From NCBI RefSeq assembly GCF_053078305.1, contig NZ_CP166879.1: a DNA stretch of 64,000 nt. One strand, written 5' to 3'. Within the stretch, counting starts at the first letter, position 1, and each line of letters starts with the position of its first letter. A program made the translations under genes and the position numbers. The notes beneath the pieces are model-generated. The model was not told the DNA's origin. It made no database searches and saw only the letters and a program-made list of their open reading frames with translations. Positions 12,726-49,376 of this stretch are shown piece after piece.

Positions 12726-12726
12726 G

Positions 12727-14067: not shown

Positions 14068-14087
14068 TTCTGAAAAAGGACATAAAT

Positions 14088-15428: not shown

Positions 15429-15441
15429 GACAAAAAACCAA

Positions 15442-15464
15442 AACCGGCTCTATCTGGAGCCGGT
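15442..15464. terminator. Hairpin AACCGGCTC-tatc-GAGCCGGTT between convergent gudD and barA
   Basis: 9-bp perfect stem; A-run on plus strand (T-run on minus) fits termination of barA; no T-run after it on plus strand. Confidence 0.5.
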
Positions 15465-15490
15465 TTGAGACTGATGCCAAACACAAAATT

Positions 15491-15588
15491 GCCTGATGCG
15501 CTACGCTTATCAGGCCTACATGCTTTTTAATTTATTGAATTTAATTGGTTTTGTAGGCCGGATAAGGCGTTAACGCCGCATCCGGCAT
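15491..15588. repeat. REP/BIME-type extragenic palindromes
   Basis: Two inverted GCCTGATGCGCTACGCTTATCAGGCCTACA-like units typical of E. coli REP elements. Confidence 0.75.
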
Positions 15589-15660
15589 AAACACAGGCAC
15601 TTTGTCACCAATCTGAAACCAGCGTCATAAAAAGCCGATTGCTACTCGACAAGACGTCCG

Positions 15661-18417: not shown

Positions 18418-18473
18418 GGAGTTCCGTTATGGGACAATTAAGGTCACACTGTTAAATTGAGAAAGTCTCGCCA

Positions 18474-19775: not shown

Positions 19776-19822
19776 TTGCGATTTGCCGATTTCGGCAGGT
19801 CTGGTCCCTAAAGGAGAGGACG

Positions 19823-22057
19823 ATGGTTGCGGTAAGAAGTGCACATATCAATAAGGCTGGTGAATTTGATCCGGAAAAATGGATCGCAAGTCTGGGTATT
19901 ACCAGCCAGAAGTCGTGTGAGTGCTTAGCCGAAACCTGGGCGTATTGTCTGCAACAGACGCAGGGGCATCCGGATGCCAGTCTGTTATTGTGGCGTGGTG
20001 TTGAGATGGTGGAGATCCTCTCGACATTAAGTATGGACATTGACACGCTGCGGGCGGCGCTGCTTTTCCCTCTGGCGGATGCCAACGTAGTCAGCGAAGA
20101 TGTGCTGCGTGAGAGCGTCGGTAAGTCGGTCGTTAACCTTATTCACGGCGTGCGTGATATGGCGGCGATCCGCCAGCTGAAAGCGACGCACACTGATTCT
20201 GTTTCCTCCGAACAGGTCGATAACGTTCGCCGGATGTTATTGGCGATGGTCGATGATTTTCGCTGCGTGGTCATCAAACTGGCGGAGCGTATTGCTCATC
20301 TGCGTGAAGTAAAAGATGCGCCGGAAGATGAACGCGTACTGGCGGCAAAAGAGTGCACCAATATCTACGCGCCGTTGGCAAACCGTCTTGGGATTGGGCA
20401 ACTGAAATGGGAGCTGGAAGATTACTGCTTCCGTTATCTCCACCCGACCGAATACAAACGCATCGCAAAACTGTTGCATGAACGCCGTCTCGACCGCGAA
20501 CACTATATCGAAGAGTTTGTCGGTCATCTGCGCGCTGAGATGAAAGCTGAAGGCGTTAAAGCTGAAGTGTATGGTCGTCCGAAACACATCTACAGCATCT
20601 GGCGCAAAATGCAGAAAAAGAACCTCGCCTTCGATGAGCTGTTTGATGTGCGTGCGGTACGTATTGTCGCCGAGCGTTTACAGGATTGTTATGCCGCACT
20701 GGGGATAGTGCACACTCACTATCGCCACCTGCCGGATGAGTTTGACGATTACGTCGCTAACCCGAAACCAAACGGTTATCAGTCTATTCATACCGTGGTT
20801 CTGGGGCCGGGTGGAAAAACCGTTGAGATCCAAATCCGCACCAAACAGATGCATGAAGATGCAGAGTTGGGTGTTGCTGCGCACTGGAAATATAAAGAGG
20901 GCGCGGCTGCTGGCGGCGCACGTTCGGGACATGAAGACCGGATTGCCTGGCTGCGCAAACTGATTGCGTGGCAGGAAGAGATGGCTGATTCCGGCGAAAT
21001 GCTCGACGAAGTACGCAGCCAGGTGTTTGACGACCGGGTGTATGTCTTTACGCCGAAAGGTGATGTCGTTGATTTACCTGCGGGATCAACGCCGCTGGAC
21101 TTCGCTTACCACATCCACAGTGATGTCGGACACCGCTGTATCGGGGCAAAAATTGGCGGGCGCATTGTGCCGTTCACCTACCAGCTGCAAATGGGCGACC
21201 AGATTGAAATTATCACCCAGAAACAGCCGAACCCCAGCCGTGACTGGTTAAACCCAAACCTCGGTTACGTCACAACCAGCCGTGGGCGTTCGAAAATTCA
21301 CGCCTGGTTCCGTAAACAGGACCGTGACAAAAACATTCTGGCTGGGCGGCAAATCCTTGACGACGAGCTGGAACATCTGGGGATCAGCCTGAAAGAAGCA
21401 GAAAAACATCTGCTGCCGCGTTACAACTTCAATGATGTCGACGAGTTGCTGGCGGCGATTGGTGGAGGGGATATCCGTCTCAATCAGATGGTGAACTTCC
21501 TGCAATCGCAATTTAATAAGCCGAGTGCCGAAGAGCAGGACGCCGCCGCGCTGAAGCAACTTCAGCAAAAAAGCTACACGCCGCAAAACCGCAGTAAAGA
21601 TAACGGTCGTGTGGTGGTTGAAGGTGTCGGTAACCTGATGCACCACATCGCGCGCTGCTGCCAGCCGATTCCTGGAGATGAGATTGTCGGCTTCATTACC
21701 CAGGGACGCGGTATTTCAGTACACCGCGCCGATTGCGAACAACTGGCGGAACTGCGCTCCCATGCGCCAGAACGCATTGTTGACGCGGTATGGGGCGAGA
21801 GCTACTCCGCCGGATATTCGCTGGTGGTCCGCGTGGTGGCTAATGATCGTAGTGGGTTGTTACGTGATATCACGACCATTCTCGCCAACGAAAAGGTGAA
21901 CGTACTTGGCGTTGCCAGCCGTAGCGACACCAAACAGCAACTGGCGACCATCGACATGACCATTGAGATTTACAACCTGCAGGTGCTGGGTCGCGTGCTG
22001 GGTAAACTCAACCAGGTGCCGGATGTTATCGACGCGCGTCGGTTGCACGGGAGTTAG
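19823..22057 (+). CDS. relA: GTP pyrophosphokinase ((p)ppGpp synthetase I)
   Basis: 744 aa RelA/SpoT family; immediately upstream of mazEF. Confidence 0.93.
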   Translation: MVAVRSAHINKAGEFDPEKWIASLGITSQKSCECLAETWAYCLQQTQGHPDASLLLWRGVEMVEILSTLSMDIDTLRAALLFPLADANVVSEDVLRESVGKSVVNLIHGVRDMAAIRQLKATHTDSVSSEQVDNVRRMLLAMVDDFRCVVIKLAERIAHLREVKDAPEDERVLAAKECTNIYAPLANRLGIGQLKWELEDYCFRYLHPTEYKRIAKLLHERRLDREHYIEEFVGHLRAEMKAEGVKAEVYGRPKHIYSIWRKMQKKNLAFDELFDVRAVRIVAERLQDCYAALGIVHTHYRHLPDEFDDYVANPKPNGYQSIHTVVLGPGGKTVEIQIRTKQMHEDAELGVAAHWKYKEGAAAGGARSGHEDRIAWLRKLIAWQEEMADSGEMLDEVRSQVFDDRVYVFTPKGDVVDLPAGSTPLDFAYHIHSDVGHRCIGAKIGGRIVPFTYQLQMGDQIEIITQKQPNPSRDWLNPNLGYVTTSRGRSKIHAWFRKQDRDKNILAGRQILDDELEHLGISLKEAEKHLLPRYNFNDVDELLAAIGGGDIRLNQMVNFLQSQFNKPSAEEQDAAALKQLQQKSYTPQNRSKDNGRVVVEGVGNLMHHIARCCQPIPGDEIVGFITQGRGISVHRADCEQLAELRSHAPERIVDAVWGESYSAGYSLVVRVVANDRSGLLRDITTILANEKVNVLGVASRSDTKQQLATIDMTIEIYNLQVLGRVLGKLNQVPDVIDARRLHGS

Positions 22058-29860: not shown

Positions 29861-30463
29861 TTAATGAGCATTAGCATTCTGGCTAAAATCTATTGTTGGG
29901 GCTTTACTTACTGCGGTGACATCATCCGGCAAATAATTTTTCTTTGGTGTGTAATCCATGACCTTTGCGGTTAATACAGCGGGGAATTTGCGGATAGTGA
30001 CATTATATTGTTCAATGGCTTTAATATATCTTCCTCGCGCAACGGCAATTCTATTTTCACTTCCTTCGAGCTGTACCATTAAGTTTTGATAGAGCTCTTG
30101 AGCCTTTAACTCAGGGTAACGCTCACTAATTATCGTTAACTGACCGAGAGTGCGAGTCACCTGCGCCTGGGCCTGTTGCCAGGCTTGTAATTTTTGTGCA
30201 TCTCCCGGAGCTTGCTGAAGATCGCTGCTGGCGCGATTAGCCTGGCTACGAGCCAATGTTACGGCTTCCAAAACGTCTTTTTCATGGCTGGAATAACCTT
30301 TAATACTGGCGACAAGATTAGGAATAAGATCGGCGCGACGTTGATATTGATTCAATACCTCAGACCAGGAGGCGTTAACCTGCTCATCATAGGTTTGAAT
30401 ATCGTTATATCCACAGCCTGATAAATTGAAAATAAATATAATTACGATGAATATTCTGAGCAT
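29861..30463 (-). CDS. LemA-family lipoprotein
   Basis: 200 aa; N-terminal signal with lipobox-like LSGC; LemA-like coiled region; first gene of 4-gene minus-strand operon. Confidence 0.7.
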   Translation of the reverse strand: MLRIFIVIIFIFNLSGCGYNDIQTYDEQVNASWSEVLNQYQRRADLIPNLVASIKGYSSHEKDVLEAVTLARSQANRASSDLQQAPGDAQKLQAWQQAQAQVTRTLGQLTIISERYPELKAQELYQNLMVQLEGSENRIAVARGRYIKAIEQYNVTIRKFPAVLTAKVMDYTPKKNYLPDDVTAVSKAPTIDFSQNANAH

Positions 30464-31645: not shown

Positions 31646-32528
31646 GAGTTCCCCGCGCTAGCGGGGATAAACCGTAATGAGTCAGGGGAATACCGAATAT
31701 TTTATAGAGTTCCCCGCGCTAGCGGGGATAAACCGAAATTTATCGAGATCGGCAGGGGTTACTGACAGAGTTCCCCGCGCTAGCGGGGATAAACCGGCCG
31801 TTAATCCGGACTGCCAGCGAATAACGCTGAGTTCCCCGCGCTAGCGGGGATAAACCGCAACATATTTAAACGATTTAAGCCAGGCATATGAGTTCCCCGC
31901 GCTAGCGGGGATAAACCGGGATTCATCACGCGGTTATCCGGGGGCCGTTAGAGTTCCCCGCGCTAGCGGGGATAAACCGGTGGTTGCGGGGTTATCGGTG
32001 GTAGTCACAATGAGTTCCCCGCGCTAGCGGGGATAAACCGCTCCAGCTCGATATCACACGACGCTATATCAGGAGTTCCCCGCGCTAGCGGGGATAAACC
32101 GGAAACAGCGCCCGCCGGTGCTGCGTTACCGTGGAGTTCCCCGCGCTAGCGGGGATAAACCGCCAACAAACTCATTTGCACTGGATTCGTGGATGAGTTC
32201 CCCGCGCTAGCGGGGATAAACCGACCGGCGCAATTGTTTTTCAGCAGCACCCGGCGAGTTCCCCGCGCTAGCGGGGATAAACCGTATTTTCTTTGTTGCG
32301 GTAGGCAATATCGCCAGAGTTCCCCGCGCTAGCGGGGATAAACCGGTATTTTGTCACGACCAGCACGAGGCCGAATAGAGTTCCCCGCGCCAGCGGGGAT
32401 AAACCGCCCCAACTCATGCCCACATGAAAAACGTTGACGAGTTCCCCGCGCCAGCGGGGATAAACCGCCGCAAAAGGTATTATTTTTATCCGTCAGTACG
32501 AGTTCCCCGCGCCAGCGGGGATAAACCA
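31646..32528 (+). CRISPR. CRISPR array, 15 repeats of 29 bp, 14 spacers of 32 bp (type I-E repeat)
   Basis: Exact 61-bp periodicity; 12 repeats GAGTTCCCCGCGCTAGCGGGGATAAACCG then 3 leader-distal repeats with CCAGCG loop; terminal repeat ends ...AACCA. Confidence 0.97.
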
Positions 32529-32996
32529 CCATATAACCCGTTATCTCTTTCTCAAGTTTTTATATTAGCTGTACTTGTAATAAGCAACATATCCACGTAA
32601 CACCTCATGTTCAAAATAGTTCCCCATGCCAGATAAGTTCACAATTATCGATACAAAAAATCAAATTTAATCAAAGTGTTATTTGTATAATCCTTAAACC
32701 GTTAAGAAATTTTAATATATTATTTTTTTAATATTAATTAATGCCTGTTAATTTTTTCTTTAGAATAACAGTGTATTTTTTAAGCTTGTTATTCATTGAT
32801 TAAGTAATAAATCTGGAAATTTGTCTTTGTTTTGAGGCTAATGAGTGGTTTTACATAACCGCCTCTATACGCTGTTGATGAATAGTTCTTATGAATAAAG
32901 ATATCCTGTTCATACTTTAAGTGAAAATTGATAAAGTGCGATTCGTATTGTCTTTTATTCTAAAGACATCGAGTGTAGTTAATATTCCTTGTAAAA

Positions 32997-33119
32997 ACAG
33001 GGATAAACCGAACTAGTTAAAGTTTTTATTATGTTCCCTGCATCAGCGGGGATAAACCGGACTTGTTATCATTTTTTAAGTTGTCGAACTTATGTTCCCC
33101 GCGCCAGCGGGGATAACCA
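32997..33119 (+). CRISPR. Vestigial CRISPR remnant (degenerate repeats)
   Basis: Partial repeat GGATAAACCG at 33001, ATGTTCCCTGCATCAGCGGGGATAAACCG at 33031-33059, ATGTTCCCCGCGCCAGCGGGGATAACC at 33092-33118; another fragment near 32617-32637. Confidence 0.7.
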
Positions 33120-33165: not shown

Positions 33166-34644
33166 TTACGCATTCGACCAGCTCTGGATCGAATCCGCAT
33201 TCCCCAATTCCCCATGCATCACTTCATACGATTTTTTCAGAATCACATCAGTGTGTTTGGTTAAATCTTTGAAAATGCCTTTATTCATCGCGTCGTAGCG
33301 TTTGGCATTGCTCTCAACAGGCATAAAGATATCTTTCACGCGAACCATTTTATCGACAGCCGTTGCGTAATCCGGGTATAGCCCCAGACCTACCGCTGTA
33401 TTAATCGCTGCCCCCAGGCTTGCACAACCGTTAATGGCATTACGTCGTGCCGGAAGGTTGAACACGTCGGCAAAAATCTGCATAAACAGATCGCTGTTCG
33501 AACCGCCGCCAGTAATGATTACATGCTTCGCAAAGTGATTCATTTCATTACACATATTGTCGTAATTGTTCTTCAGCGTCAGCGCCACGCTTTCCAGTAT
33601 CGAACGATATATCCATGCGTAATCCATGCTGGAATCAAAGCCGATCATAATCCCACGTTTGTAGGGTTCCCACGGGTTGGTCAGCCAGTCCAGCACCGTC
33701 ATCAGACCATTACAGCCAGGCGGCACACAAGAAGCTTTTTTGTTGAGCAAATCTTCCGGTGAAAGATCCTGTGCTTTGGCATCCTGAATTAACGACTCGC
33801 CTAACATGTCGCGTAGCCAGCTCACCGTCCACATGCCTTTACGGATACCGTACCCTTCATACAGCAATGTTTCCGGAATAGAAGACATAATCGGCCAGTA
33901 CGCCACCGGATCTTTCGGCAGTGCTTTACCGTTCATCATCAGCGCGATGTAGGTGCCAAGAGAAATCACCGCCGTTTCATCATCCAGTAATCCGGCTCCC
34001 AGAGCTTCTACCGGTTTATCACTGGTGGTACAAACAACCGGCAGCCCTGACGGGAAATGTGTCGCCAGCGCGGCTTGAGGTGTGATCTGTCCAAGAACAG
34101 TGCCTGGCATTTGCACATCAAACAGCATATGACGGGGGATATTAAACTTCTCCATTACCGCAGCATCTTCGCTCCATGCCCAGCTCTTATAATCCACCGG
34201 CCACTGACCAAAATAGTTGGCGATATTGTCTTTAAACTCGCCGGTTAAGCGATGCGTCAGATAACCCGAAAAAGAGGTGACATATGCCACGTCAGGATTA
34301 GTGTGTTCGTAGGGACGCGTTACGCGTGCATCCTGCCAGCTAATCAACGGCGCAGCAGGCGTGCCATCGGCTTTCAATAACGCACGGCAGCAACGGATGG
34401 ATCCCAGACCAATACCGACAATATCTTCTTTATTCCCGGCAAACTGACTCATCAAATCGTGACCGGCAAAACATAATGATGCCCATAAATCGTCGTCAGG
34501 ATGTTCTGCAGTATCGGCATCTGGCGTGTGCATCGGCTGCAATAAACCTTTGCCTTCGCAAACCACGTTACCTTCCAGATCGTATATCACCACTTTTGTG
34601 CTCTGACTTCCGCCATCAATCCCTATGATGTATTTTTTCGACAT
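33166..34644 (-). CDS. ygcE: FGGY-family carbohydrate kinase
   Basis: 492 aa, FGGY sugar kinase N- and C-domains. Confidence 0.8.
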   Translation of the reverse strand: MSKKYIIGIDGGSQSTKVVIYDLEGNVVCEGKGLLQPMHTPDADTAEHPDDDLWASLCFAGHDLMSQFAGNKEDIVGIGLGSIRCCRALLKADGTPAAPLISWQDARVTRPYEHTNPDVAYVTSFSGYLTHRLTGEFKDNIANYFGQWPVDYKSWAWSEDAAVMEKFNIPRHMLFDVQMPGTVLGQITPQAALATHFPSGLPVVCTTSDKPVEALGAGLLDDETAVISLGTYIALMMNGKALPKDPVAYWPIMSSIPETLLYEGYGIRKGMWTVSWLRDMLGESLIQDAKAQDLSPEDLLNKKASCVPPGCNGLMTVLDWLTNPWEPYKRGIMIGFDSSMDYAWIYRSILESVALTLKNNYDNMCNEMNHFAKHVIITGGGSNSDLFMQIFADVFNLPARRNAINGCASLGAAINTAVGLGLYPDYATAVDKMVRVKDIFMPVESNAKRYDAMNKGIFKDLTKHTDVILKKSYEVMHGELGNADSIQSWSNA

Positions 34645-34670
34645 GATTTTTCTCCTGTAATTTTCCTGGC

Positions 34671-35948
34671 TTACTTGCTGCTAGCCATTGCGGGGGCGCT
34701 ATCAGCAGTACGAATTTTTTGGAACAGCAAAAAGGTAAAGACGATCACCATGCCGAGTGCCGCCATGCCCATCAGCCACATGTTGCGGTAGGCTTCTGCT
34801 GCGGGCAGGGTGTCCTGCCAGTGGCCGATAATCGGGTAAACGAAGACATCCGGCAGGAATCCAATCACCGAACAAATACCTACCGTGGTGCCCATAATGT
34901 AAGACGGTGTTCTCGCTTCGCCAGGGCAGGCCCAGTACAGCCCGCGTGAGGCGTAACAGGTGAATCCCAGCAGTAAAATCAGGCCAATCCCCATCGCGAC
35001 CGATTGCGGGTTAGAGTTGGTAACAAGCAGGGCAGTCAGTGCCAGCAGGCCGATGATGGAAAGGATTTGAATCACGCGGGTAGGGGATTTCACTTTACTG
35101 TAGGTGGTGATAATGCCGCCAAGTGGGCCGCACAGCGCGCGGAATATTTTGTTGATCACAATCCCCATGTAGCTCGCCGCCACCAGCGACATGCCATACA
35201 TTTCGGTCAGATAGTTGGTGGAGTAACTCAGAATGGCGTAGATGGTGAAGACACCAAAAATCACCATGCTGCAATACCAGGTGGTGCTGATGCGCAAAAC
35301 GGCCAGGATGTCGCTAAGCTGGAATGATTGTTTATCTTCGTTATTGGCACTGCGCAGGTTGTTGTTATCGCTAACAAAAAACCAGCACAGAATCCCCAAC
35401 AAGATGTAAACCACACTATAGATGATAATGACCGTTTTCAGGCTGGCGCTGTCATCCGGTGCAAAGCGAGAAAAGACCCACATGGTAAACACCGCCAGCG
35501 ACATTACACCGACGCCGCGCAGCCCTTCCATCCAGCCCATAATTTTCCCTTGCTCGCTATGATCGCCAAGCAACGATGCGGCTTTAATCGACACCGACCA
35601 CAGCATTAAAATCGTTGTTATCGCAAAGGCGACCTGAATACAGAGCATTACCCACAGCGGTGGATATGTTGCCATTAACAGACCCAGTAATCCGGTAATG
35701 ATCATCGCGGAAGTAATCATTTTGCGGTGTGAAAATTTATCGGCAATAACGCCGCTGGGGGCATAAAGAATAATAGCTGCAATACCAAAGGTACTCATTA
35801 TTAAACCTATCTCGGTATTGCTGAATCCCATAAATTTCGCCATGGGAATTTGATAAATATAACGTAAATAAGCCAGGTCAAAACTAACGCCGCCGCTAAA
35901 ACTAATTATCGCGAGGGTTATCCAACGGCGATATGAGTTGTGTTGCAT
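34671..35948 (-). CDS. yqcE: MFS transporter
   Basis: 425 aa, about 12 TM helices. Confidence 0.75.
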   Translation of the reverse strand: MQHNSYRRWITLAIISFSGGVSFDLAYLRYIYQIPMAKFMGFSNTEIGLIMSTFGIAAIILYAPSGVIADKFSHRKMITSAMIITGLLGLLMATYPPLWVMLCIQVAFAITTILMLWSVSIKAASLLGDHSEQGKIMGWMEGLRGVGVMSLAVFTMWVFSRFAPDDSASLKTVIIIYSVVYILLGILCWFFVSDNNNLRSANNEDKQSFQLSDILAVLRISTTWYCSMVIFGVFTIYAILSYSTNYLTEMYGMSLVAASYMGIVINKIFRALCGPLGGIITTYSKVKSPTRVIQILSIIGLLALTALLVTNSNPQSVAMGIGLILLLGFTCYASRGLYWACPGEARTPSYIMGTTVGICSVIGFLPDVFVYPIIGHWQDTLPAAEAYRNMWLMGMAALGMVIVFTFLLFQKIRTADSAPAMASSK

Positions 35949-36266
35949 ATCGTATTCCCATTTGTAATAGACAAAAAAAAGAGAAAAGTAAGCCGCCCTT
36001 TCAGGTGGATTACTTTTCTCAGGTCTCTAGTAATTGCAATAAGAAATAACATGGAAAGCAGAGGTGTTGTGTGAGAGTAATCACGCTTCTGCTTTTTAAA
36101 ACTATTTGATAATGCGAATATCACACTGTGATTACGATCACATTAGCAGTTATGCCCTTATGCTAAAAATTATCTCCAGTTACCAGAGATAATGAGAAAG
36201 GTAACTTCCCTCTCGCGGGGGAAGTTACCTTTCTTTTTTTTTGCCTTACGGAAATTGGAGCTAACT

Positions 36267-37052
36267 ATGTCAATCGAATCTCTCAATGCGTTCTCAATGG
36301 ATTTTTTCTCCCTGAAAGGTAAAACCGCAATTGTTACCGGCGGGAATAGCGGTTTAGGCCAGGCATTTGCCATGGCGTTGGCCAAAGCAGGCGCAAATGT
36401 CTTTATTCCTAGCTTCGTCAAAGATAACGGCGAAACAAAGGAAATGATTGAAAAACAGGGTGTTGAAGTTGATTTTATGCAGGTGGATATCACCGCAGAA
36501 GGCGCGCCGCAGAAGATTATCGCTGCTTGCTGTGAGCGTTTCGGAACAGTTGATATTCTGGTTAACAATGCCGGTATTTGTAAGCTGAATAAGGTGCTGG
36601 ACTTTGGTCGAGCCGACTGGGACCCGATGATTGATGTGAACCTGACCGCCGCATTCGAGTTAAGCTACGAAGCGGCAAAAATTATGATCCCGCAGAAAAG
36701 CGGTAAAATTATTAATATCTGTTCATTGTTCTCTTACTTAGGTGGACAATGGTCACCTGCATATTCTGCCACTAAACATGCTCTTGCCGGATTCACCAAA
36801 GCTTATTGTGATGAACTAGGTCAATATAATATTCAGGTAAATGGTATCGCCCCTGGCTATTATGCAACAGATATTACGCTGGCGACACGCAGTAATCCAG
36901 AAACCAATCAGCGCGTTCTTGATCATATTCCGGCAAAACGTTGGGGCGATACTCAGGATTTAATGGGCGCAGCCGTATTCCTCGCAAGTCCGGCATCGAA
37001 TTATGTCAACGGGCATTTATTAGTGGTTGATGGCGGTTATTTAGTGCGCTAA
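36267..37052 (+). CDS. ygcW: Short-chain dehydrogenase/reductase (KduD/FabG-like)
   Basis: ATG at 36267 gives about 261 aa with TGGNSGLG Rossmann motif; ORF track start 36192 is probably an upstream extension. Confidence 0.8.
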   Translation: MSIESLNAFSMDFFSLKGKTAIVTGGNSGLGQAFAMALAKAGANVFIPSFVKDNGETKEMIEKQGVEVDFMQVDITAEGAPQKIIAACCERFGTVDILVNNAGICKLNKVLDFGRADWDPMIDVNLTAAFELSYEAAKIMIPQKSGKIINICSLFSYLGGQWSPAYSATKHALAGFTKAYCDELGQYNIQVNGIAPGYYATDITLATRSNPETNQRVLDHIPAKRWGDTQDLMGAAVFLASPASNYVNGHLLVVDGGYLVR

Positions 37053-37121
37053 CCCATAACGGTGGTTTCTGTTTTCTCTTATTAATGATTATTCCATTTT
37101 TATTATCAGGAAGGAATTACT

Positions 37122-38576
37122 ATGTCTTTATCTCGCGCAGCGATTGTCGACCAGCTAAAGGAAATTGTTGGTGCAGATCGCGTAATTACCGATGAAACAG
37201 TATTAAAGAAGAACAGTATTGACCGTTTTCGTAAATTTCCGGATATTCATGGTATTTATACTTTGCCGATTCCGGCTGCGGTCGTAAAACTCGGTTCCAC
37301 AGAACAAGTCTCCCGTGTGCTGAATTTTATGAATGCGCACAAAATTAACGGTGTGCCGCGTACCGGTGCTTCCGCCACCGAAGGTGGGCTGGAAACTGTT
37401 GTAGAAAACTCGGTGGTGCTCGACGGTTCCGCCATGAATCAAATCATTAATATTGATATTGAGAATATGCAGGCGACGGCGCAATGTGGCGTTCCGCTGG
37501 AGGTGCTGGAAAACGCGTTGCGTGAAAAAGGTTACACCACGGGGCATTCTCCGCAGTCAAAGCCGCTGGCGCAGATGGGCGGCCTGGTAGCAACCCGCAG
37601 TATCGGGCAGTTCTCCACACTCTACGGCGCAATCGAAGATATGGTCGTTGGTCTGGAAGCCGTATTGGCTGATGGCACCGTCACACGTATTAAAAACGTG
37701 CCACGCCGCGCGGCTGGCCCGGACATTCGTCACATCATCATCGGCAACGAAGGTGCATTGTGCTATATCACTGAAGTAACAGTGAAAATCTTTAAATTCA
37801 CCCCGGAAAACAATCTCTTCTACGGCTATATCCTGGAAGACATGAAAACCGGCTTCAACATCCTGCGTGAAATCATGGTGGAAGGGTATCGTCCGTCGAT
37901 CGCTCGTTTGTATGACGCTGAAGATGGCACCCAACACTTCACGCATTTTGCCGACGGAAAATGCGTGCTGATCTTTATGGCTGAAGGTAACCCTCGCATT
38001 GCGAAGGCGACGGGCGAAGGGATTGCGGAAATCGTTGCCCGCTACCCGCAATGCCAACGCGTGGACAGCAAGCTGATCGAAACCTGGTTTAACAACCTGA
38101 ACTGGGGACCGGATAAAGTGGCTGCCGAACGTGTGCAGATCCTCAAAACCGGCAACATGGGCTTTACTACCGAAGTGTCCGGCTGCTGGAGCTGCATCCA
38201 CAAAATCTACGAAAGCGTTATTAACCGTATTCGTACCGAGTTCCCGCACGCCGACGACATCACTATGCTGGGCGGTCACTCCTCTCATAGCTATCAGAAC
38301 GGCACCAACATGTACTTCGTCTACGACTACAACGTTGTCAACTGTAAGCCGGAAGAGGAAATCGACAAGTACCACAATCCGCTCAACAAAATCATTTGCG
38401 AAGAAACCATTCGCCTCGGTGGTTCGATGGTGCACCACCACGGTATCGGTAAACATCGCGTTCACTGGAGCAAGCTGGAACACGGCAGCGCGTGGGCGTT
38501 GCTGGAAGGGCTGAAAAAGCAGTTCGATCCTAACGGCATTATGAATACGGGTACTATCTATCCGATTGAAAAATAA
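37122..38576 (+). CDS. ygcU: FAD-linked oxidase (alkyl-DHAP synthase / D-lactate dehydrogenase-like)
   Basis: 484 aa, FAD_binding_4-like N-terminal domain. Confidence 0.8.
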   Translation: MSLSRAAIVDQLKEIVGADRVITDETVLKKNSIDRFRKFPDIHGIYTLPIPAAVVKLGSTEQVSRVLNFMNAHKINGVPRTGASATEGGLETVVENSVVLDGSAMNQIINIDIENMQATAQCGVPLEVLENALREKGYTTGHSPQSKPLAQMGGLVATRSIGQFSTLYGAIEDMVVGLEAVLADGTVTRIKNVPRRAAGPDIRHIIIGNEGALCYITEVTVKIFKFTPENNLFYGYILEDMKTGFNILREIMVEGYRPSIARLYDAEDGTQHFTHFADGKCVLIFMAEGNPRIAKATGEGIAEIVARYPQCQRVDSKLIETWFNNLNWGPDKVAAERVQILKTGNMGFTTEVSGCWSCIHKIYESVINRIRTEFPHADDITMLGGHSSHSYQNGTNMYFVYDYNVVNCKPEEEIDKYHNPLNKIICEETIRLGGSMVHHHGIGKHRVHWSKLEHGSAWALLEGLKKQFDPNGIMNTGTIYPIEK

Positions 38577-38669
38577 TGTGTCAGGCAGCGTTCCGCGATG
38601 ACGGGGCGTTGCCTTTTCGGCTTCTCAGGCGAGAAGCCGTTCTTATTACCGGACAATGAAGGGGTAAAG

Positions 38670-40007
38670 ATGAACACTTCACCGGTGCGAATGGATGATT
38701 TACCGCTTAACCGTTTTCACTGTCGAATTGCTGCGCTCACTTTCGGCGCACACCTGACCGACGGTTATGTTCTCGGCGCCATTGGTTACGCCATTATTCA
38801 ACTTACGCCCGCCATGCAACTGACGCCGTTTATGGCGGGAATGATCGGCTGCTCGGCGCTCCTTGGTTTGTTTCTTGGCAGCCTGGTTCTTGGGTGGATC
38901 TCCGACCATATTTGTCGGCAAAAAATCTTCACCTTCAGCTTTTTGCTGATTACGCTCGCTTCGTTCCTGCAATTTTTTGCCACCACGCCAGAGCATCTTA
39001 TTGGACTGCGCATTTTGATCGGCATTGGTCTGGGAGGCGATTACTCAGTCGGTCACACCTTGCTGGCTGAATTTTCCCCGCGCCGCCATCGCGGTATTTT
39101 ACTGGGCGCATTCAGCGTGGTGTGGACCGTAGGCTATGTGCTGGCAAGTATTGCCGGACATCACTTTATTTCCGAAAACCCGGAGGCCTGGCGCTGGCTA
39201 CTGGCATCGGCAGCTCTGCCCGCGTTGTTGATTACGTTATTACGCTGGGGAACGCCAGAATCGCCACGCTGGCTACTGCGCCAGGGGCGTTTTGCAGAAG
39301 CTCACGCTATCGTGCATCGCTATTTTGGTCCCCATGTTTTACTGGGCGATGAAGTGGTAACGGCGACCCATAAACACATCAAAACCTTGTTCTCTTCGCG
39401 TTACTGGCGGCGCACGGCGTTTAACAGCGTCTTCTTTGTCTGCCTCGTAATCCCATGGTTTGTGATTTATACCTGGCTGCCAACTATCGCCCAGACTATT
39501 GGTCTGGAAGATGCGCTGACTGCCAGCCTGATGCTTAATGCGTTGTTAATTGTGGGCGCGCTGCTGGGATTAGTTCTGACGCACCTGCTGGCACATCGCA
39601 AATTTTTGCTGGGAAGTTTTTTGCTGCTGGCGGCAACGCTGGTAGTAATGGCCTGTTTGCCTTCCGGCAGTTCATTAACGCTGCTGCTTTTTGTTCTCTT
39701 CAGCACCACCATTTCGGCAGTCAGTAATCTGGTGGGCATTTTGCCTGCGGAAAGTTTTCCTACTGACATTCGCTCGCTGGGCGTCGGTTTTGCCACCGCC
39801 ATGAGTCGGTTGGGGGCGGCGGTAAGTACTGGCCTGCTGCCGTGGGTGCTGGCGCAGTGGGGAATGCAAGTCACCTTATTGCTCCTGGCGGCAGTGTTGT
39901 TGGTTGGTTTTGTTGTGACCTGGCTATGGGCACCAGAAACCAAAGCACTCCCGCTGGTGGCGGCGGGAAATGTAGGAGGTGCGAATGAACATTCTGTTAG
40001 CGTTTAA
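38670..40007 (+). CDS. ygcS: MFS transporter (sugar/aromatic acid porter-like)
   Basis: ATG at 38670 with GAAGGGG RBS, about 445 aa, 12 TM. Confidence 0.78.
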   Translation: MNTSPVRMDDLPLNRFHCRIAALTFGAHLTDGYVLGAIGYAIIQLTPAMQLTPFMAGMIGCSALLGLFLGSLVLGWISDHICRQKIFTFSFLLITLASFLQFFATTPEHLIGLRILIGIGLGGDYSVGHTLLAEFSPRRHRGILLGAFSVVWTVGYVLASIAGHHFISENPEAWRWLLASAALPALLITLLRWGTPESPRWLLRQGRFAEAHAIVHRYFGPHVLLGDEVVTATHKHIKTLFSSRYWRRTAFNSVFFVCLVIPWFVIYTWLPTIAQTIGLEDALTASLMLNALLIVGALLGLVLTHLLAHRKFLLGSFLLLAATLVVMACLPSGSSLTLLLFVLFSTTISAVSNLVGILPAESFPTDIRSLGVGFATAMSRLGAAVSTGLLPWVLAQWGMQVTLLLLAAVLLVGFVVTWLWAPETKALPLVAAGNVGGANEHSVSV

Positions 40008-40762
40008 AGCCGAACCGGATGCCGGAATGCTGGCGGAAAAAGAGTGGCAGGCGGCGGCTCAGGGTAATAGCGGACCGGATGTTTCGCTACTGCGAAGTTT
40101 ACTCGGTGCTGATGAACAGGCTGCCGCCGCGCTGCTGTTGGCGCAGAGAAAAAACGGTACGCCGATGTCTTTAACCGCGTTGAGCATGGGGGATGAACTG
40201 GCGTTACACTGGCTGCGCTATCTCATGGCTCTTGGGTTTGAGGAAGCTGTATTGCTGGAGACGGCGGCAGATCTGCGCTTTGCGCCGGAATTTGTCGCTC
40301 GCCATATTGCCGAATGGCAGCGTCAGAATCCGCTGGATCTGATAATTACCGGCTGCCAAAGCAGCGAAGGGCAGAATGGGCAAACGCCATTTTTGCTGGG
40401 TGAAGCTGGGCTGGCCCTGCTTCACCCAGGTGGAGCGTTTCACTCTCGACGCGCTGTTTATCACCCTCGAACAGCGTACTGAACATGGGCTGCGCTGTTG
40501 TCGGATTCGCTTGCCTGCGGTGATTGCCGTGCGTCAGTGCGGTGAAGTGGCCTTGCCAGTACCGGGAATGCGCCAGCGAATGGCTGCGGGGAAAGCGGAA
40601 ATTATCCGTAAAACTGTTGCTGCCGAATTGCCAGCGATGCAGTGTCTGCAACTGGCAAGAGCAGAGCAACGACGCGGAGCGACGCTGATTGATGGGCAAA
40701 CGGTAGCAGAAAAAGCGCAAAAGCTATGGCAGGACTATTTACGCCAAAGGATGCAGCCATGA
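39985..40762 (+). pseudogene. ygcR: Electron-transfer flavoprotein beta-like (FixA-like), apparently frameshifted
   Basis: Two overlapping ORFs (to 40482, and 40376-40762) in different frames; locus is 778 bp, not a multiple of 3; frame changes near 40390-40400. Confidence 0.6.
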
Positions 40763-41619
40763 ATATCGCAATTGTGACAATAAATCAGGAGAATGCCGCA
40801 TTAGCGGGCTGGCTGGCGGCGCAGGATTTCAGCGGTTGTACCCTGGCGCACTGGCAAATAGAACCACAGCCCGTAGTGGTGGAACAGGTGCTGGATGCGC
40901 TGGTGGAACAGTGGCAGCGAACGCCTGCGGACGTTGTTCTCTTTCCGCCGGGAACGTTTGGCGATGAACTGTCGACCCGGCTGGCCTGGCGTTTACATGG
41001 TGCAAGCATCTGCCAGGTGACTTCGTTAGAGATTCCAACCGTAAGCGTGCGCAAATCCCACTGGGGAAATGCGCTAACGGCGACGCTGCAAACAGAAAAA
41101 CGCCCGCTATGTCTTTCCCTGGCGCGCCAGGCGGGAGCAGATAAAAATGCCACGTTGCCCTCTGGTATGCAGCAACTGAACATAGTCCCAGGTGCGCTTC
41201 CGGACTGGCTGGTTAGCATAGAGAACCTGAAAAATGTTACCCGCGACCCATTAGCTGAGGCCAGACGGGTGTTGGTGGTGGGGCAGGGCGGAGAGGCAGA
41301 TAACCAGGAAATCGCTATGCTGGCAGAAAAGCTGGGAGCCGAAGTGGGCTACAGTCGGGCGCGAGTGATGAACGGTGGCGTTGATGCTGAAAAAGTGATT
41401 GGTATTTCCGGACATCTGCTGGCACCTGAGGTGTGTATTGTTGTTGGTGCTTCTGGCGCAGCAGCGTTAATGGCGGGCGTACGCAATAGCAAGTTTGTGG
41501 TGGCGATTAATCATGACGCCAGCGCAGCGGTATTTTCACAGGCAGATGTTGGCGTGGTTGATGACTGGAAAGTGGTGCTGGAGGCACTGGTGACAAACAT
41601 TGACGCAGATTGCCAATAA
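40759..41619 (+). CDS. ygcQ: Electron-transfer flavoprotein alpha-like (FixB-like)
   Basis: ATG at 40759 gives 286 aa; ATGA overlap with end of ygcR reading frame. Confidence 0.8.
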   Translation: MNIAIVTINQENAALAGWLAAQDFSGCTLAHWQIEPQPVVVEQVLDALVEQWQRTPADVVLFPPGTFGDELSTRLAWRLHGASICQVTSLEIPTVSVRKSHWGNALTATLQTEKRPLCLSLARQAGADKNATLPSGMQQLNIVPGALPDWLVSIENLKNVTRDPLAEARRVLVVGQGGEADNQEIAMLAEKLGAEVGYSRARVMNGGVDAEKVIGISGHLLAPEVCIVVGASGAAALMAGVRNSKFVVAINHDASAAVFSQADVGVVDDWKVVLEALVTNIDADCQ

Positions 41620-41624
41620 CGTGT

Positions 41625-41730
41625 TGCCGGATGATCCTGCCTACGGTTCTGGACTGGGGACCTGTAGGCCTGATAAGACGCGTTAAGCGTCGCATCAGGC
41701 GCTGAATGTCGGATGTGGCGTGCGGCCTAC
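41625..41730. repeat. REP/BIME extragenic palindromes
   Basis: GCCTGATAAGACGCG...CGCATCAGGC-type REP units between convergent ygcQ and ygcP. Confidence 0.7.
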
Positions 41731-41766
41731 AAATCAAACCAAATTCAATTGGTTACGATTATCCCG

Positions 41767-42342
41767 TCAAAGCAATTTTTTCGCTAACGTCCAGACTCCG
41801 GTATTCGTGGTGGAAAGCGCCACGACACCCGCGTTAATCGCATTACGCGCATCTTCTTCATCGCATACCAGCCCGCCAGCAATCAGCGGTTGGCGGATTT
41901 TTTCCGTCACCCAGCCCAGCACTTTGGGCATGCAGCCTGGCAGGATCTCAATACAATCCGGATTCGATTGCGCAACTTGCTTATCAATGTTGTGAAACGA
42001 AATCGAATCAACAATAAACAGGCGATGAATACAGAAAAAACCTTCCGCTCTTGCCGCTTTCAACATTGAGGCTTTGGTACTGATAATGCCGTCCGCCTCG
42101 GTCACCAGTTTCAAAAACTGAATCACGACTTCTTTATTTGACGCGCCTTCCAGCAAATCAACATGAATAAAAGCATATTTCCCGGCGTTCTTAATCTTTT
42201 TAACGATATTACTGATGGTGCAGATATTGCCGTACAACACGGAAATAAATTGGCATTCAGAATCGATTGCCAGTTGCAGGCTGGCATTATCTTTAACGGC
42301 AGCAATCACCGGATTCTGGCGGAGCAGGTGTAAGAGGGGCAT
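41767..42342 (-). CDS. ygcP: GlpP-like glycerol-3-phosphate responsive antiterminator family protein
   Basis: 191 aa; family assignment from memory of YgcP. Confidence 0.65.
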   Translation of the reverse strand: MPLLHLLRQNPVIAAVKDNASLQLAIDSECQFISVLYGNICTISNIVKKIKNAGKYAFIHVDLLEGASNKEVVIQFLKLVTEADGIISTKASMLKAARAEGFFCIHRLFIVDSISFHNIDKQVAQSNPDCIEILPGCMPKVLGWVTEKIRQPLIAGGLVCDEEDARNAINAGVVALSTTNTGVWTLAKKLL

Positions 42343-42358
42343 AAATTATCCTTATTAT

Positions 42359-42619
42359 TTATCCAAAGCGGTAGGTGATGCCGAATCCGGAAGGTGGATA
42401 GCGCCACTGTTGTAGTGTTGATTCGTCGCACAGCAAACGGCAGGTGCCACACTCAAGGCAACCGCGATAATCAACACGCAAGTCGCCTTCCGGCGTGAGC
42501 GCAAAAAGACCTGCCGGGCAGGCGTTAATTAATCGTTCTGCCGTCTGGCGCTCAACGGAGTCAGCCGGAACAATATGCGGCGCATCAGCAGCGCGCCAGA
42601 GATTACGGGCTACAGACAT
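42359..42619 (-). CDS. ygcO: Ferredoxin-like protein (FixX-like)
   Basis: ATG at 42619 gives 86 aa with Cys cluster (CLECGTCRLLCD); overlaps ygcN stop by 10 nt. Confidence 0.75.
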   Translation of the reverse strand: MSVARNLWRAADAPHIVPADSVERQTAERLINACPAGLFALTPEGDLRVDYRGCLECGTCRLLCDESTLQQWRYPPSGFGITYRFG

Positions 42620-43881
42620 CGAACACTCCTGATAACATCGCCCGCCAGATTCCACAAGCCATGACGACGTAAATGACGCCAGAGTAACTGGCGCAGCGGT
42701 GGAACAGGTTTATCACCCTGATCCCATAAATCGCGGGAAATATCCTGCATTAACGCAGGCCACGTACGGTACCATCCCGGGCGTTGCAAAAGCGCCGGAA
42801 CATGCTGATAACGCTGTAGAACTTCCCACAGCAGGCTGCGCTCTACGTTGTGATGATAAAGCGGAAACAGATTTTGCGGCTCGCGGTGCTGGCAGGCGCT
42901 TATCAGTGTTTGTGCCGCCGCCTGCGCGCCAGTTAGCGCCGTATCCATGCCGCGCACAGAAATTCCGGTATTGACGCAACTGCGCAACGCATCGCCCACC
43001 AGCAGCCAGCCGTTACCGGCGTATTGTACCGGCATACTGTGCAAGCCACCTTCTGGCACCAGATGCGCACCATACTCCAGTGATTCCGTGTTTTTGATAA
43101 GCGGGCGCACTGCCGGATGCGTTTTAAAGCGAGCAAGCAGCTCGCTTGCCGGAACACGACTTTGCGTAAGGGAAGAGAGTGGGCAAACAATCCCTAACGA
43201 GAGCGTTTGTTGATTAGTATAAAGAAATGCGCCGCCGGGTAAGTCATCACAGATTCCGCCGCTGAACAGCAACGCTGCGCCTTCGTTATTCTCCAGATGA
43301 AAACGTTCTTCAATAGCGGATGTTTCCAGCGACAGCACTTCTTTGATCCCCAACGCCATCGCTTCGCCAGCAGGACGAGTCACTAACCCGTGACGTTCAG
43401 CCAGGACGCTGTTGGCACCTTCTGCCAGCACCACATAACGGGCGCGGAGAATATCGTCACCACAAATGACACCACACACCCTGCCGTTTTCTTCATACAG
43501 TGCATCCACCGTCGCACCAGGGATGCATTCGACACCTTCTTTTTCGGCTTCGGCAACCAGCCACGGATCGAACCGTGCACGTAATACACTCCAGGATTCA
43601 CCGCCGGGCTGTAAGCTGGAAAACGTCGTTGCGCAATCCGGCGTTAACAGGGAAAGGCTTTCGTGAGTGATGCGTCGTTCAAGAGGCGCGGTCAGATGAA
43701 ATTGAGGGAGGAGTTCCGCGAGTGCATGGGTATATAACCGCCCGCCGGAAAGATTTTTGCTGCCGGGGATTTCAGCGCGTTCCAGTAACAAAACGGATAA
43801 ACCCGCTCGCGCGCAGCGTAACGCGCAAGCGGTGCCTGCAATACCGGCACCAATAATAATAATGTCGCAGTCGTCTTCCAT
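42610..43881 (-). CDS. ygcN: FAD-dependent oxidoreductase (FixC-like, ETF-quinone oxidoreductase type)
   Basis: ATG at 43881 gives 423 aa with GAGIAG dinucleotide-binding motif. Confidence 0.8.
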   Translation of the reverse strand: MEDDCDIIIIGAGIAGTACALRCARAGLSVLLLERAEIPGSKNLSGGRLYTHALAELLPQFHLTAPLERRITHESLSLLTPDCATTFSSLQPGGESWSVLRARFDPWLVAEAEKEGVECIPGATVDALYEENGRVCGVICGDDILRARYVVLAEGANSVLAERHGLVTRPAGEAMALGIKEVLSLETSAIEERFHLENNEGAALLFSGGICDDLPGGAFLYTNQQTLSLGIVCPLSSLTQSRVPASELLARFKTHPAVRPLIKNTESLEYGAHLVPEGGLHSMPVQYAGNGWLLVGDALRSCVNTGISVRGMDTALTGAQAAAQTLISACQHREPQNLFPLYHHNVERSLLWEVLQRYQHVPALLQRPGWYRTWPALMQDISRDLWDQGDKPVPPLRQLLWRHLRRHGLWNLAGDVIRSVRCL

Positions 43882-43958
43882 GTCATGCCCCAGATATCCT
43901 GAACACAACACCCTAACATAGCGTTACTTAAGGGAAATTGACCGCCGCCACACTCTTA

Positions 43959-48959: not shown

Positions 48960-49223
48960 ATATTGCCGGATAAATTAAACGCCTCTGTCAGAAATGATGG
49001 GGGCGTTTTTATTTTGCGAGCAGCATTCCTGATTTTAAACGTGAACGCCGCTGGAAGAATTAACAGGTATAGAATGGTGTTGGGTGCTTGAGGCTGTCTG
49101 GCGTTAAGCATTCGCGAGGTTCCAGATGGACAAAAGCCCCAGGCGATATTTCTATCAACCTGAGGCCAGCGTTCGAACCTAAGCAATTCGAATGTTAGTC
49201 TCTTCTTTGCAGGGAGGCAAGAC

Positions 49224-49376
49224 ATGCTGACAAAATATGCCCTTGTGGCAATCATCGTACTGTGTTGTACAGTACTGGGATTCACGCTGATGGTAGGCGA
49301 CTCGTTGTGTGAGTTGAGTATCAGAGAACGTGGTATGGAGTTTAAGGCTGTTCTCGCTTACGAATCGAAGAAGTAG
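49224..49376 (+). CDS. hokX: Hok/Gef-family type I toxin (probable hokX)
   Basis: 50-codon ORF, not in the ORF track because under 60 aa; hydrophobic N-terminal TM segment plus conserved Hok C-terminal pattern (LCEL..R...EF.A.LAYESK); followed by a hairpin. Confidence 0.65.

Follow-up and report, generated by a model that had tools for sequence, protein, structure and literature searches.

What does the ygc cluster of Escherichia coli do, and how is its expression controlled? The genes are among the larger function-less gene blocks of E. coli K-12. We addressed the question in a 64-kb window (i.e., the whole stretch of DNA that was analyzed, from NCBI RefSeq assembly GCF_053078305.1, contig NZ_CP166879.1), in which ten ygc/yqc genes stand in K-12 order at positions 33166 to 43911 (nucleotide identity to MG1655, 94 to 98%). 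At least 80% of the cluster is covered in 5060 of 5426 complete E. coli genomes (best genome, 98.8% identical). In the full-text literature, searched by gene names and functional terms, the ten genes appear in CRP-site data, in genome-wide screens and in CRISPR typing with ygcE as a landmark; no defined pathway was found, which agrees with an earlier note, made from this DNA sequence alone, that had left the substrate unassigned. The explanation that we favor is that of a CRP-activated regulon, antiterminated by YgcP, which would degrade a substituted glycerol-like compound and pass the electrons to quinone; as a whole, we give it an even chance of being right.

The K-12 start codons were used for the gene coordinates (Table 1); position 43911 is the end of the longest open reading frame (ORF), and the K-12 start of ygcN moves this end to 43881. 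The ten genes that the earlier note had listed were all located at 33166 to 43911, and every family that it had assigned was correct, with domain searches supporting the labels of the electron transfer flavoprotein (ETF), FixC, and FGGY members. It had arranged the genes in two divergent or convergent blocks; the opposed orientations stand, and the genes form three transcription units (i.e., ygcW-U-S-R-Q at 36267 to 41619 of the plus strand, and two units read from the minus strand, yqcE-ygcE from 35948 to 33166 and ygcN-O-P from 43881 to 41767). Three features were missed by its gene list: a frameshift in ygcR, two leader terminators, and the alkyl-dihydroxyacetone phosphate (DHAP) synthase character of YgcU.

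The two divergent operons led by ygcW and yqcE are each preceded by an RNA element of about 70 nt, in which a strong intrinsic terminator is overlapped by an alternative hairpin. This alternative hairpin consists of a GUUACY/RGUAAC stem and a loop of 13 to 16 nt with nearly invariant AGAG and GAGAAA boxes, and the motif common to both leaders is UUACYAGAGA-N3-4-GAGAAARGUAA. The ygcW hairpin with its U tract ends 24 nt 5' of the ygcW ATG, and its leader folds with -42.3 kcal/mol (z = -6.99 versus shuffled controls); the yqcE leader folds with -27.3 kcal/mol (z = -4.06). Because both hairpins stand between divergent start codons, no gene ends at either of them. With a covariance model of the element, the number of full copies in the window is exactly two, and K-12 has this same pair; each hairpin also scores weakly on the complementary strand. 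Neither leader has a match in Rfam at the E-value and gathering thresholds. Copies of the yqcE leader with 99% identity or more were found in 4674 E. coli records, and the listed RefSeq records carry no annotation there. The blastn search with this leader, run on E. coli genomes, was so insensitive that even the ygcW copy was missed, and it is uninformative on extra copies. For ygcN, folding of the 5' leader is not significant (z = 0.58), and searches with nhmmer and with the covariance model both failed to find the element upstream of this gene; thus, ygcNOP are probably outside the control of the switch.

In Vibrio hannami, Clostridium sediminicola, and Leminorella, the same element stands 5' of short-chain dehydrogenase/reductase (SDR), kinase, or major facilitator superfamily (MFS) genes, with a ygcP homologue nearby. 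The contexts of distant YgcP homologues were looked up, and a scan with a YgcP alignment, taking one genome per species, yielded 80 loci; the Ygc proteins were placed on all loci by tblastn, and the ORFs were clustered in 44. An nhmmer profile built from seven copies detected the element in essentially every locus that contains the core genes described below (100 distinct copies after trimming, about 70 loci, at least six phyla), and the divergent copies of Enterococcus and Listeria were confirmed by eye and with the covariance model; the element is present at all ygcP-type loci that were examined. Since most loci had been fetched via YgcP, we also ran the search in reverse: a metagenome scan by the RNA pattern alone returned five contigs, all five with ygc core genes beside the match. 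In loci with mapped ORFs, the element precedes YgcW, YqcE, YgcU, YgcE, and BCCT genes, and no copy was assigned to YgcN or YgcP; its position ahead of the BCCT genes places these transporters in the same regulon. Two Clostridium loci (L003, 7264 to 7329; L052, 7157 to 7222) carry a full copy of the switch within the operon, ahead of ygcU.

Covariation, counted on a plain MAFFT alignment (A2), bears out both structures. In the alternative helix, which joins the upstream strand to the 5' arm of the terminator, 94.6% of the cells are paired, compared with at most 55% when the partner is slid, and none of 500 shuffles was as good. Both sides have changed in 53 cells, and the changes are compensatory at four of the seven pairs (e.g., G-C in 68 and A-U in 30 sequences; U-A in 80 and C-G in 16; A-U in 93 and G-C in 6). 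The outer helix of the terminator is 90.8% paired, with seven pairs changed on both sides and again no shuffle out of 500 as good. At several positions the upstream strand is a better pairing partner of the terminator 5' arm than the 3' arm is, as is expected if the alternative hairpin is functional.

The regulator that would act on this element is YgcP. It aligns with all 173 model positions of PF04309 (G3P_antiterm; E = 1.6e-62), and its PDB relatives are 3kts and 1vkf; the fold of PF04309 proteins is TIM-barrel-like. In Bacillus subtilis, GlpP together with glycerol-3-phosphate (G3P) overrides the terminators in the glpD, glpFK, and glpTQ leaders (PMC9604022, PMC10573289). The leader element, with its predicted contact motifs, is most likely the antitermination target of YgcP, and we consider YgcP-dependent antitermination at the ygcW and yqcE leaders probable.

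The ygc system has in common with GlpP/glp a PF04309 regulator, intrinsic terminators in the 5' leaders with an overlapping alternative RNA structure, a kinase in the regulon that could make a phosphorylated inducer, and catabolite control layered over the whole. It differs in its regulon: in place of glpFK, glpD or glpA, and glpTQ, the targets are ygcW, ygcU, ygcE, and yqcE, and elsewhere BCCT genes (i.e., an SDR, an alkyl-DHAP-synthase-like flavoenzyme, a distinct FGGY kinase, and MFS, BCCT, or OpuC transporters, with no glpF, glpK, glpD, glpT, or glpQ). In addition, its GUUACY/RGUAAC stem is specific to ygcP-type loci, and it is found in Proteobacteria, including E. coli, with CRP rather than CcpA. 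A protein-stabilized hairpin over the 5' arm of a leader terminator, as proposed here, is also the design of the ribonucleic antiterminator (RAT)-terminator leaders of BglG and SacY (e.g., the sugar-catabolic bgl operon of E. coli), although YgcP belongs to an unrelated family (neither CAT nor PRD domains, and no control by the phosphotransferase system) and the RNA motif is a different one.

Ten of the fetched loci carry a YgcP homologue (46 to 52% identity) without YgcW, YgcU, and YgcE. The two of them that were annotated both encode a GlpA-type G3P dehydrogenase, one also a glycerophosphodiester phosphodiesterase, and they look like canonical glycerol loci. Three canonical GlpP-type leaders (L084, 3064 to 3138; L086, 9871 to 9950; L088, 10619 to 10695) follow the same plan as the ygc leaders, with an upstream strand, then a loop with two GAGA-like boxes, and then a terminator 5' arm. 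Their stems differ in sequence, and the ygc covariance model gives them 25 to 27 bits or nothing; when double-GAGA leaders were sought in canonical GlpP loci with a strict regular expression, L088 alone matched. Given this sole match and the weak scores of L084 and L086, a family-wide RNA design is not established. The evidence for a general RNA recognition rule of the GlpP family, of which we found no description in the literature, is suggestive, and the ygc element is best seen as a distinct subtype of the GlpP-family antiterminator target.

Both operons also appear to respond to CRP. The site TGTGATTACGATCACA upstream of the ygcW element was bound in vitro with a dissociation constant (Kd) of 1.7 nM by Footprint-seq (PMC12871828), yqcE-ygcE is listed as Crp-activated (PMC8085971), and ygcW and yqcE are among the top PhyloScan CRP predictions (PMC1794230). 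Together with the putative second site that we read from the sequence (Table 1), this arrangement fits two class II CRP promoters whose transcripts would start with the switch.

The set of genes that travels with the element narrows the question of function. YgcP co-occurs across phyla with YgcW (60 to 79% identity), YgcU (55 to 72%), and YgcE (43 to 57%). This core is present in Enterobacterales, Vibrionaceae, Clostridia, Sporomusa, an Anaerolineaceae genome, and Spirochaetes, in the Bacilli Halobacillus, Thalassobacillus, Gracilibacillus, Fodinisporobacter, and Listeria newyorkensis, and in the Actinobacteria Streptomyces, Arthrobacter, and Prauserella. An Ancalomicrobiaceae genome carries a YgcP homologue with the rest of the core except YgcW, which was not detected on a contig that is cut. 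Genes for EtfB and EtfA follow YgcU directly, mainly in anaerobes and facultative anaerobes, and they are not in the cluster of the aerobic Bacilli, Actinobacteria, Pantoea, Erwinia, Serratia, and Ewingella. YgcN and YgcO (i.e., FixCX) are restricted to Enterobacterales clusters. Because the ETF is missing in many taxa and FixCX occurs only in Enterobacterales, we define the conserved system as YgcP, YgcW, YgcU, and YgcE; therefore, ETF and FixCX are an optional electron outlet of this core.

A variant cluster was observed in Enterococcus (L075, L078, L083, and L085; about 6900 to 20300), in which no FGGY kinase was detected within the fetched loci. It has two YgcW paralogues, an OpuC transporter in the operon, and a YegS/DgkB-type lipid kinase gene nearby; in this variant, a kinase for substituted glycerols may replace YgcE.

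The transporters vary between lineages. Of the 44 clustered loci, 26 have YqcE-like MFS genes together with the core; ygcS occurs only in Enterobacterales clusters, and BCCT or OpuC-type ABC genes are found in many Firmicutes, Vibrio, Spirochaetes, and other core loci. Halobacillus and Thalassobacillus have the operon in a minimal form, namely, SDR, kinase, YgcU, and BCCT. The OpuC substrate-binding protein of the Fodinisporobacter operon is nearest to a choline-binding OpuBC scaffold (E = 1e-75), and the BCCT transporter of the Vibrio ygc locus is nearest to BetP. The element-bearing BCCT genes and the OpuC genes within operons point to a choline-type head group in these other phyla. The accessory genes (i.e., those encoding a PHP phosphatase, a SurE-like phosphatase, and betaine-aldehyde-dehydrogenase-like, proline-racemase-like, formaldehyde-activating-enzyme-like, and YegS-like lipid kinase proteins) are inconsistent between taxa and were not relied on to deduce the substrate. 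In Serratia, Pantoea, and Erwinia (L042, L043, L045, and L050; about 4300 to 9900), ygcS lies outside the ygcW operon, in a neighboring operon that contains formaldehyde-activating-enzyme-like, aldo-keto reductase, and succinate-semialdehyde-dehydrogenase-like genes and adjoins a LysR regulator of the GcvA/choline-sulfate type.

YgcU gives the clearest indication of the chemistry. Its nearest solved sequence relatives are the alkyl-DHAP synthase (ADPS or AGPS) entries 4bby and 2uuu (E = 5e-40), followed by glycolate oxidase, D-lactate dehydrogenase (D-LDH), and LctD. Since the PDB holds the ADPS mutants R419H and Y578F, the alignments show the catalytic equivalents in YgcU directly: Arg262 (PSIARLYD), Tyr398 (GTNMYF), and His438-440 (HHHG) are aligned with ADPS Arg419, Tyr578, and His615-617. 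In a pattern search of YgcU orthologues, the Tyr motif and HHHG were found in 40 of 40 and the string P-S-x-A-R-L-Y-D in 32 of 40, and the five residues are invariant in a 25-sequence alignment that includes the Enterococcus and spirochaete members. The AlphaFold model of YgcU (pLDDT 82.8) likewise has a VAO/PCMH two-domain fold that is nearest to AGPS, the top 30 Foldseek PDB matches all being AGPS (TM-score, 0.82 to 0.85; D-LDH, 0.77 to 0.79). In a collection of 5.8 billion proteins, YgcU homologues bear generic names (e.g., "FAD-binding oxidoreductase") or similarity-based labels, such as "alkyldihydroxyacetonephosphate synthase" and "Uncharacterized FAD-linked oxidoreductase Rv2280."

The His/His/Glu metal motif of GlcD and LctD (H..H.., ..EHG..) is absent from YgcU, and because HHHG replaces the metal-binding EHG, we rejected its identification as a D-lactate or glycolate dehydrogenase. 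The LctBCD complex of Acetobacterium woodii (PDB 7qh2) has the same order of FAD-linked oxidase, EtfB, and EtfA, with a dehydrogenase that would reduce ETF; YgcU differs from it in lacking the metal-binding motif. An LctD-like paralogue (FADox2) near the core in some Clostridia retains H..HVN in all six of its typical-length members; three of seven members matched SEHG or TEHG, and the gene of this paralogue is followed by one for a Fer4-EtfA. The presence of this separate paralogue beside the ygc core indicates that YgcU and LctD are distinct enzymes. Such a second, LctD-like flavoenzyme was observed in six loci of Clostridia, Sporomusa, and Anaerolineaceae (L003, L009, L051, L052, L056, and L066), in three of which (L003, L052, and L056) an EtfB and a ferredoxin-domain EtfA of its own go with it. 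Its presence is a hint that strict anaerobes form a D-2-hydroxy acid, possibly D-lactate, downstream.

In eukaryotes, AGPS works with an SDR, alkyl-DHAP reductase, as the next step (PMC7517302). YgcU resembles AGPS in its fold, in the catalytic equivalents, and in its SDR and kinase partners, which could interconvert a substituted glycerol, its phosphate, and a substituted DHAP, much as AGPS is paired with acyl/alkyl-DHAP reductase. The two are nevertheless distant: YgcU is about 170 residues shorter (484 amino acids versus 658 in guinea-pig AGPS), their identity is 24 to 26%, and the aligned region begins near residue 50 to 60 of YgcU and about residue 200 of AGPS. The context of YgcU is catabolic and inducible, and long-chain substrates are not indicated. 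Furthermore, AGPS is redox-neutral, whereas the genetic link of YgcU with ETF and ETF:quinone oxidoreductase implies that it catalyzes a net oxidation. Its conserved partnership with ETF means that YgcU, unlike AGPS, would be left reduced, which would fit either an oxidative cleavage or a role as a dehydrogenase of a G3P analogue.

The other two enzymes of the core are less specific in their matches. YgcE matches FGGY kinases at the family level (E = 1e-41 to 1e-19; Pfam FGGY_N and FGGY_C are recorded for orthologues), and it is far under the equivalog cut-offs of the NCBIfam models for xylulokinase, autoinducer-2 (AI-2) kinase, and glycerol kinase (e.g., 143 versus 380 bits); at E <= 1e-20, the AI-2 kinase LsrK is its sole relative in the PDB. 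YgcW scores 349.6 bits with the KduD model NF005390 (cut-off, 369), and gluconate 5-dehydrogenase models match it too.

The electron-transfer genes are incomplete in the window. A 2-bp deletion near 40399 to 40405, with adjacent substitutions (CTGGCGGAAATGCTGG to CTGGGTGAAGCTGG), shifts the frame of ygcR, and a stop follows codon 166. None of the 5072 complete E. coli genomes that carry this stretch has the frameshift allele (best identity, 95.7%); the allele represents a pseudogene peculiar to this strain or else an error of sequencing. With YgcQ whole and ygcR broken, the window lacks an intact pair of ETF alpha and beta subunits, so that the ETF route may be inactive in this genome; K-12 YgcR matches Pfam ETF (E = 2.4e-16). 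A FixC-type flavoprotein (YgcN) and a FixX-type ferredoxin (YgcO) are present, and their scores under the FixC and FixX equivalog cut-offs mark them as paralogues. The ygc module thus shares with FixABCX, which is linked to cai, and with YdiQRST the ETF alpha and beta subunits, a FixC-like flavoprotein, and a FixX-like ferredoxin, and it likely connects a flavoenzyme to the quinone pool in the same manner. It differs from both in having no cai-type or acyl-coenzyme A (acyl-CoA) partners, its partner being a flavoenzyme of the VAO/PCMH fold, and in an ETF/FixCX part that is dispensable in many lineages.

From these elements, we propose the following scheme, in which we infer the protein-RNA binding, the ligand, the order of the steps, and the substrate. 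CRP would activate the two divergent promoters, and each transcript would start with the element, whose default terminator fold halts RNA polymerase before ygcW or yqcE. Ligand-loaded YgcP would bind and stabilize the alternative hairpin, so that the terminator 5' arm is sequestered and read-through follows; by the analogy of GlpP and G3P, the ligand is probably the phosphorylated product of YgcE. The substrate would be taken up via YqcE and/or YgcS in E. coli and via BCCT or choline-type OpuC transporters in other phyla. YgcE would phosphorylate a primary hydroxyl, YgcW would then oxidize the adjacent secondary hydroxyl, and YgcU would act on the resulting DHAP-like keto-phosphate, its two electrons passing through ETF (YgcRQ) and the FixCX-like YgcNO to quinone. 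The route would thus run from a 1-substituted glycerol to its phosphate, to a 1-substituted DHAP, and finally to DHAP and the substituent, with no aldolase or isomerase needed.

On this scheme, the substrate class is most likely a 1-substituted glycerol, or a very similar small polyol, that yields DHAP and a released substituent. We put forward the substituted-glycerol chemistry itself only tentatively, and our confidence in any specific compound is low. A bolder version, which we regard as unlikely, is that YgcE, YgcW, and YgcU run the entry steps of eukaryotic ether-lipid synthesis in reverse, as a bacterial route of wide distribution that cleaves otherwise inert 1-substituted glycerols to DHAP and a head group via a flavin-N5 adduct, oxidatively where ETF is present, while the GlpP-family element senses the phosphorylated intermediate; candidate substrates would be glyceryl ethers (e.g., deacylated betaine-lipid head groups) or choline-bearing glycerol derivatives.

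The compound degraded by the cluster might instead be a small polyol or sugar acid of an ordinary kind, either a tetritol (cf. the Brucella ery pathway) or an acid like 2-keto-3-deoxygluconate or gluconate, for example. YgcW would then be of the KduD or gluconate 5-dehydrogenase type, in keeping with its matches, YgcE a ketose or acid-sugar kinase, and YgcU an ETF-linked dehydrogenase of a D-2-hydroxyacid or polyol phosphate, which is suggested by its matches to GlcD, LctD, and D-LDH and by a YgcU-EtfB-EtfA order resembling the lactate dehydrogenase LctBCD. The MFS type of the E. coli transporters and a CRP control typical of sugar operons would also be accommodated, the quaternary-amine transporters being incidental. 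These transporters are hard to dismiss, however, since BCCT genes with the element and OpuC genes in the operon recur in many unrelated taxa. The cluster also has no dehydratase, aldolase, or isomerase, YgcE is far under the cut-off of every characterized FGGY equivalog, and YgcU has the His triplet, Tyr, and Arg of AGPS instead of the metal motif, all of which make the polyol or sugar-acid reading doubtful. In E. coli, the electrons with which carnitine is reduced probably come from fixABCX, and a likeness to cai/fix, drawn in the earlier note, would suggest an anaerobic electron sink in which YgcNO and YgcQR feed YgcU to reduce a substrate. The likeness holds for the parts, YgcN, YgcO, YgcQ, and YgcR being paralogous to FixC, FixX, FixB, and FixA; as an analogy it misleads, for genes of the cai or acyl-CoA type are found neither in the window nor in about 90 related loci (i.e., no CoA-transferase, CoA-ligase, or acyl-CoA dehydrogenase). 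A core that dispenses with ETF in Bacilli, Actinobacteria, Pantoea, Erwinia, and Serratia and has FixCX only in Enterobacterales, a kinase and an NAD-dependent SDR that indicate oxidative carbon catabolism, and regulation by CRP (an FNR- or anaerobiosis-type signal was not looked for) leave the electron sink with very little probability.

The regulatory part has its own competitor, namely, that the leaders are not targets of YgcP at all: they could be metabolite riboswitches, or bidirectional terminators or palindromes like the repetitive extragenic palindromic (REP) elements, with YgcP as a TIM-barrel enzyme of the pathway. The TIM-barrel-like fold of the PF04309 proteins 1vkf and 3kts would allow an enzyme, the RNA binding of YgcP is a prediction, and the weak score of each hairpin on the complementary strand would suit a palindrome. 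Yet no gene ends at either hairpin, and the covariation of the upstream strand with the 5' arm does not depend on the 3' arm, which fits a switch and not a simple palindrome. A variable stem with a conserved purine loop of 13 to 16 nt is seen again in the canonical GlpP leaders, B. subtilis has an established GlpP-dependent antitermination of this type, and Rfam holds no match. We therefore regard this alternative as improbable and retain YgcP-dependent antitermination.

Several points weigh against the regulon that we favor. The link between YgcP and the leader RNA comes from genomic association, and the co-occurrence of the two is partly built in by the YgcP-based fetching of loci; the reverse search comprised five contigs, with a pattern drawn from the enterobacterial consensus. 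The presumed transcription start sites are placed from the CRP geometry. As to the chemistry, YgcW is just under the KduD cut-off, and judging by this match sugar-acid chemistry would fit equally well. The exchange catalyzed by AGPS is redox-neutral, so that coupling to ETF would require the flavin adduct to be resolved in another way, and this is speculative. Since no aldolase, isomerase, or phosphatase is encoded in the E. coli cluster, an end product that is a central metabolite must be assumed. Finally, E. coli has MFS transporters and not BCCT or OpuC, and its substrate may differ from that of the Firmicutes.

The surroundings of the cluster were examined as well (Table 1). The earlier note had it bracketed by CRISPR remnants and REP elements. 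CRISPRs do flank it, as two full arrays, and only the degenerate run of repeats adjoins ygcE; of REP elements, a single weak naRNA4-like match was found, located inside the cluster. The second array lies about 15 kb beyond ygcN, past queD, cysJI, and the sok RNA, and, judging from the gene order of strain A16 (the closest complete genome), this interval would also hold cysH, hok, and cas genes. The sole Rfam matches at the gathering level in the window are the CsrB small RNA and sok, the latter being the antitoxin RNA of the hok/sok module. Beside queE, a LemA-family gene (29861 to 30463 and upstream) occupies the place where K-12 has yqcG and ygcG; in strain A16, three TPM-domain genes come next to it. 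The short hairpin between ygcU and ygcS could be an internal attenuator or an RNA-stability element.

Table 1. Coordinates of the features in the 64-kb window, with strand where assigned
Feature	Position	Strand	Description
ygcE	33166-34644	-	FGGY-family kinase; second gene of the yqcE-ygcE operon; ORF intact; 96.6% nucleotide identity to K-12
yqcE	34671-35948	-	MFS transporter; weakly similar to anion:cation symporter and organophosphate antiporter families
yqcE leader element	35969-36037	-	Covariance model 70.5 bits; strand AAUUACU 36035-36029, then AGAGA..GAGAAA loop, terminator stem 36020-35981, U8 tract 35980-35973
Putative second CRP site	36070-36085		TGTGAGAGTAATCACG; center 41.5 bp from 36036, the 5' end of the yqcE element; read from sequence
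CRP site	36127-36142		TGTGATTACGATCACA; center 41.5 bp upstream of 36176, the first base of the ygcW element
ygcW leader element	36176-36247	+	Terminator scan; covariance model 77.7 bits; strand AGUUACC 36178-36184, then AGAGAUAAUGAGAAA loop, 19-bp terminator stem 36194-36235, U9 tract 36236-36243
ygcW	36267-37052	+	NAD(P)-dependent SDR; nearest KduD and gluconate 5-dehydrogenase
ygcU	37122-38576	+	FAD-linked flavoenzyme, alkyl-DHAP synthase type; FAD_binding_4 and FAD-oxidase_C
Hairpin	38618-38639		9 bp, GC-rich, CGGCTTCTCAGGCGAGAAGCCG; ygcU-ygcS intergenic
ygcS	38670-40007	+	MFS transporter; related to sugar-porter, aromatic-acid, and organic-cation transporter families
ygcR	39985-40762	+	ETF beta subunit; frameshifted in the window
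ygcQ	40759-41619	+	ETF alpha subunit; Pfam ETF_alpha 2.3e-17, ETF 3.3e-06; intact
REP-like element	41667-41740		Between convergent ygcQ and ygcP; Rfam naRNA4 32.8 bits versus gathering score 59.5
ygcP	41767-42342	-	GlpP-family protein, predicted RNA-binding antiterminator; PF04309
ygcO	42359-42619	-	FixX-like ferredoxin; NF011993 FixX 83.8 bits versus 166-bit cut-off
ygcN	42610-43881	-	FixC-like FAD-dependent ETF:quinone oxidoreductase; NF007450 384.7 bits, NF007542 FixC 364.9 bits, both under cut-offs
CRISPR array 1	31646-32527		15 repeats, GAGTTCCCCGCGC(T/C)AGCGGGGATAAACCG; full, type I-E-style
Degenerate repeats	32980-33118		2-3 repeats; adjoin the ygcE stop codon
CRISPR array 2	about 58580-59457		Full, type I-E-style
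CsrB small RNA	8958-9317		Rfam, 384 bits
sok RNA	49082-49239		Rfam, 111.7 bits

If the regulatory part is true, this would be, to our knowledge, the first GlpP-type antitermination system described in Proteobacteria, with an RNA motif family that is new to Rfam and spans at least six phyla. The two leader terminators probably keep the ygc operons silent in the laboratory. If the proposed chemistry is true, it would assign a catabolic role to the AGPS fold and would identify a nutrient of choline-type transporters in gut, soil, and marine bacteria. Should the reversed ether-lipid route also hold, the cluster would represent a new source of choline-type metabolites or a new electron donor for anaerobic respiration in gut Enterobacteriaceae.

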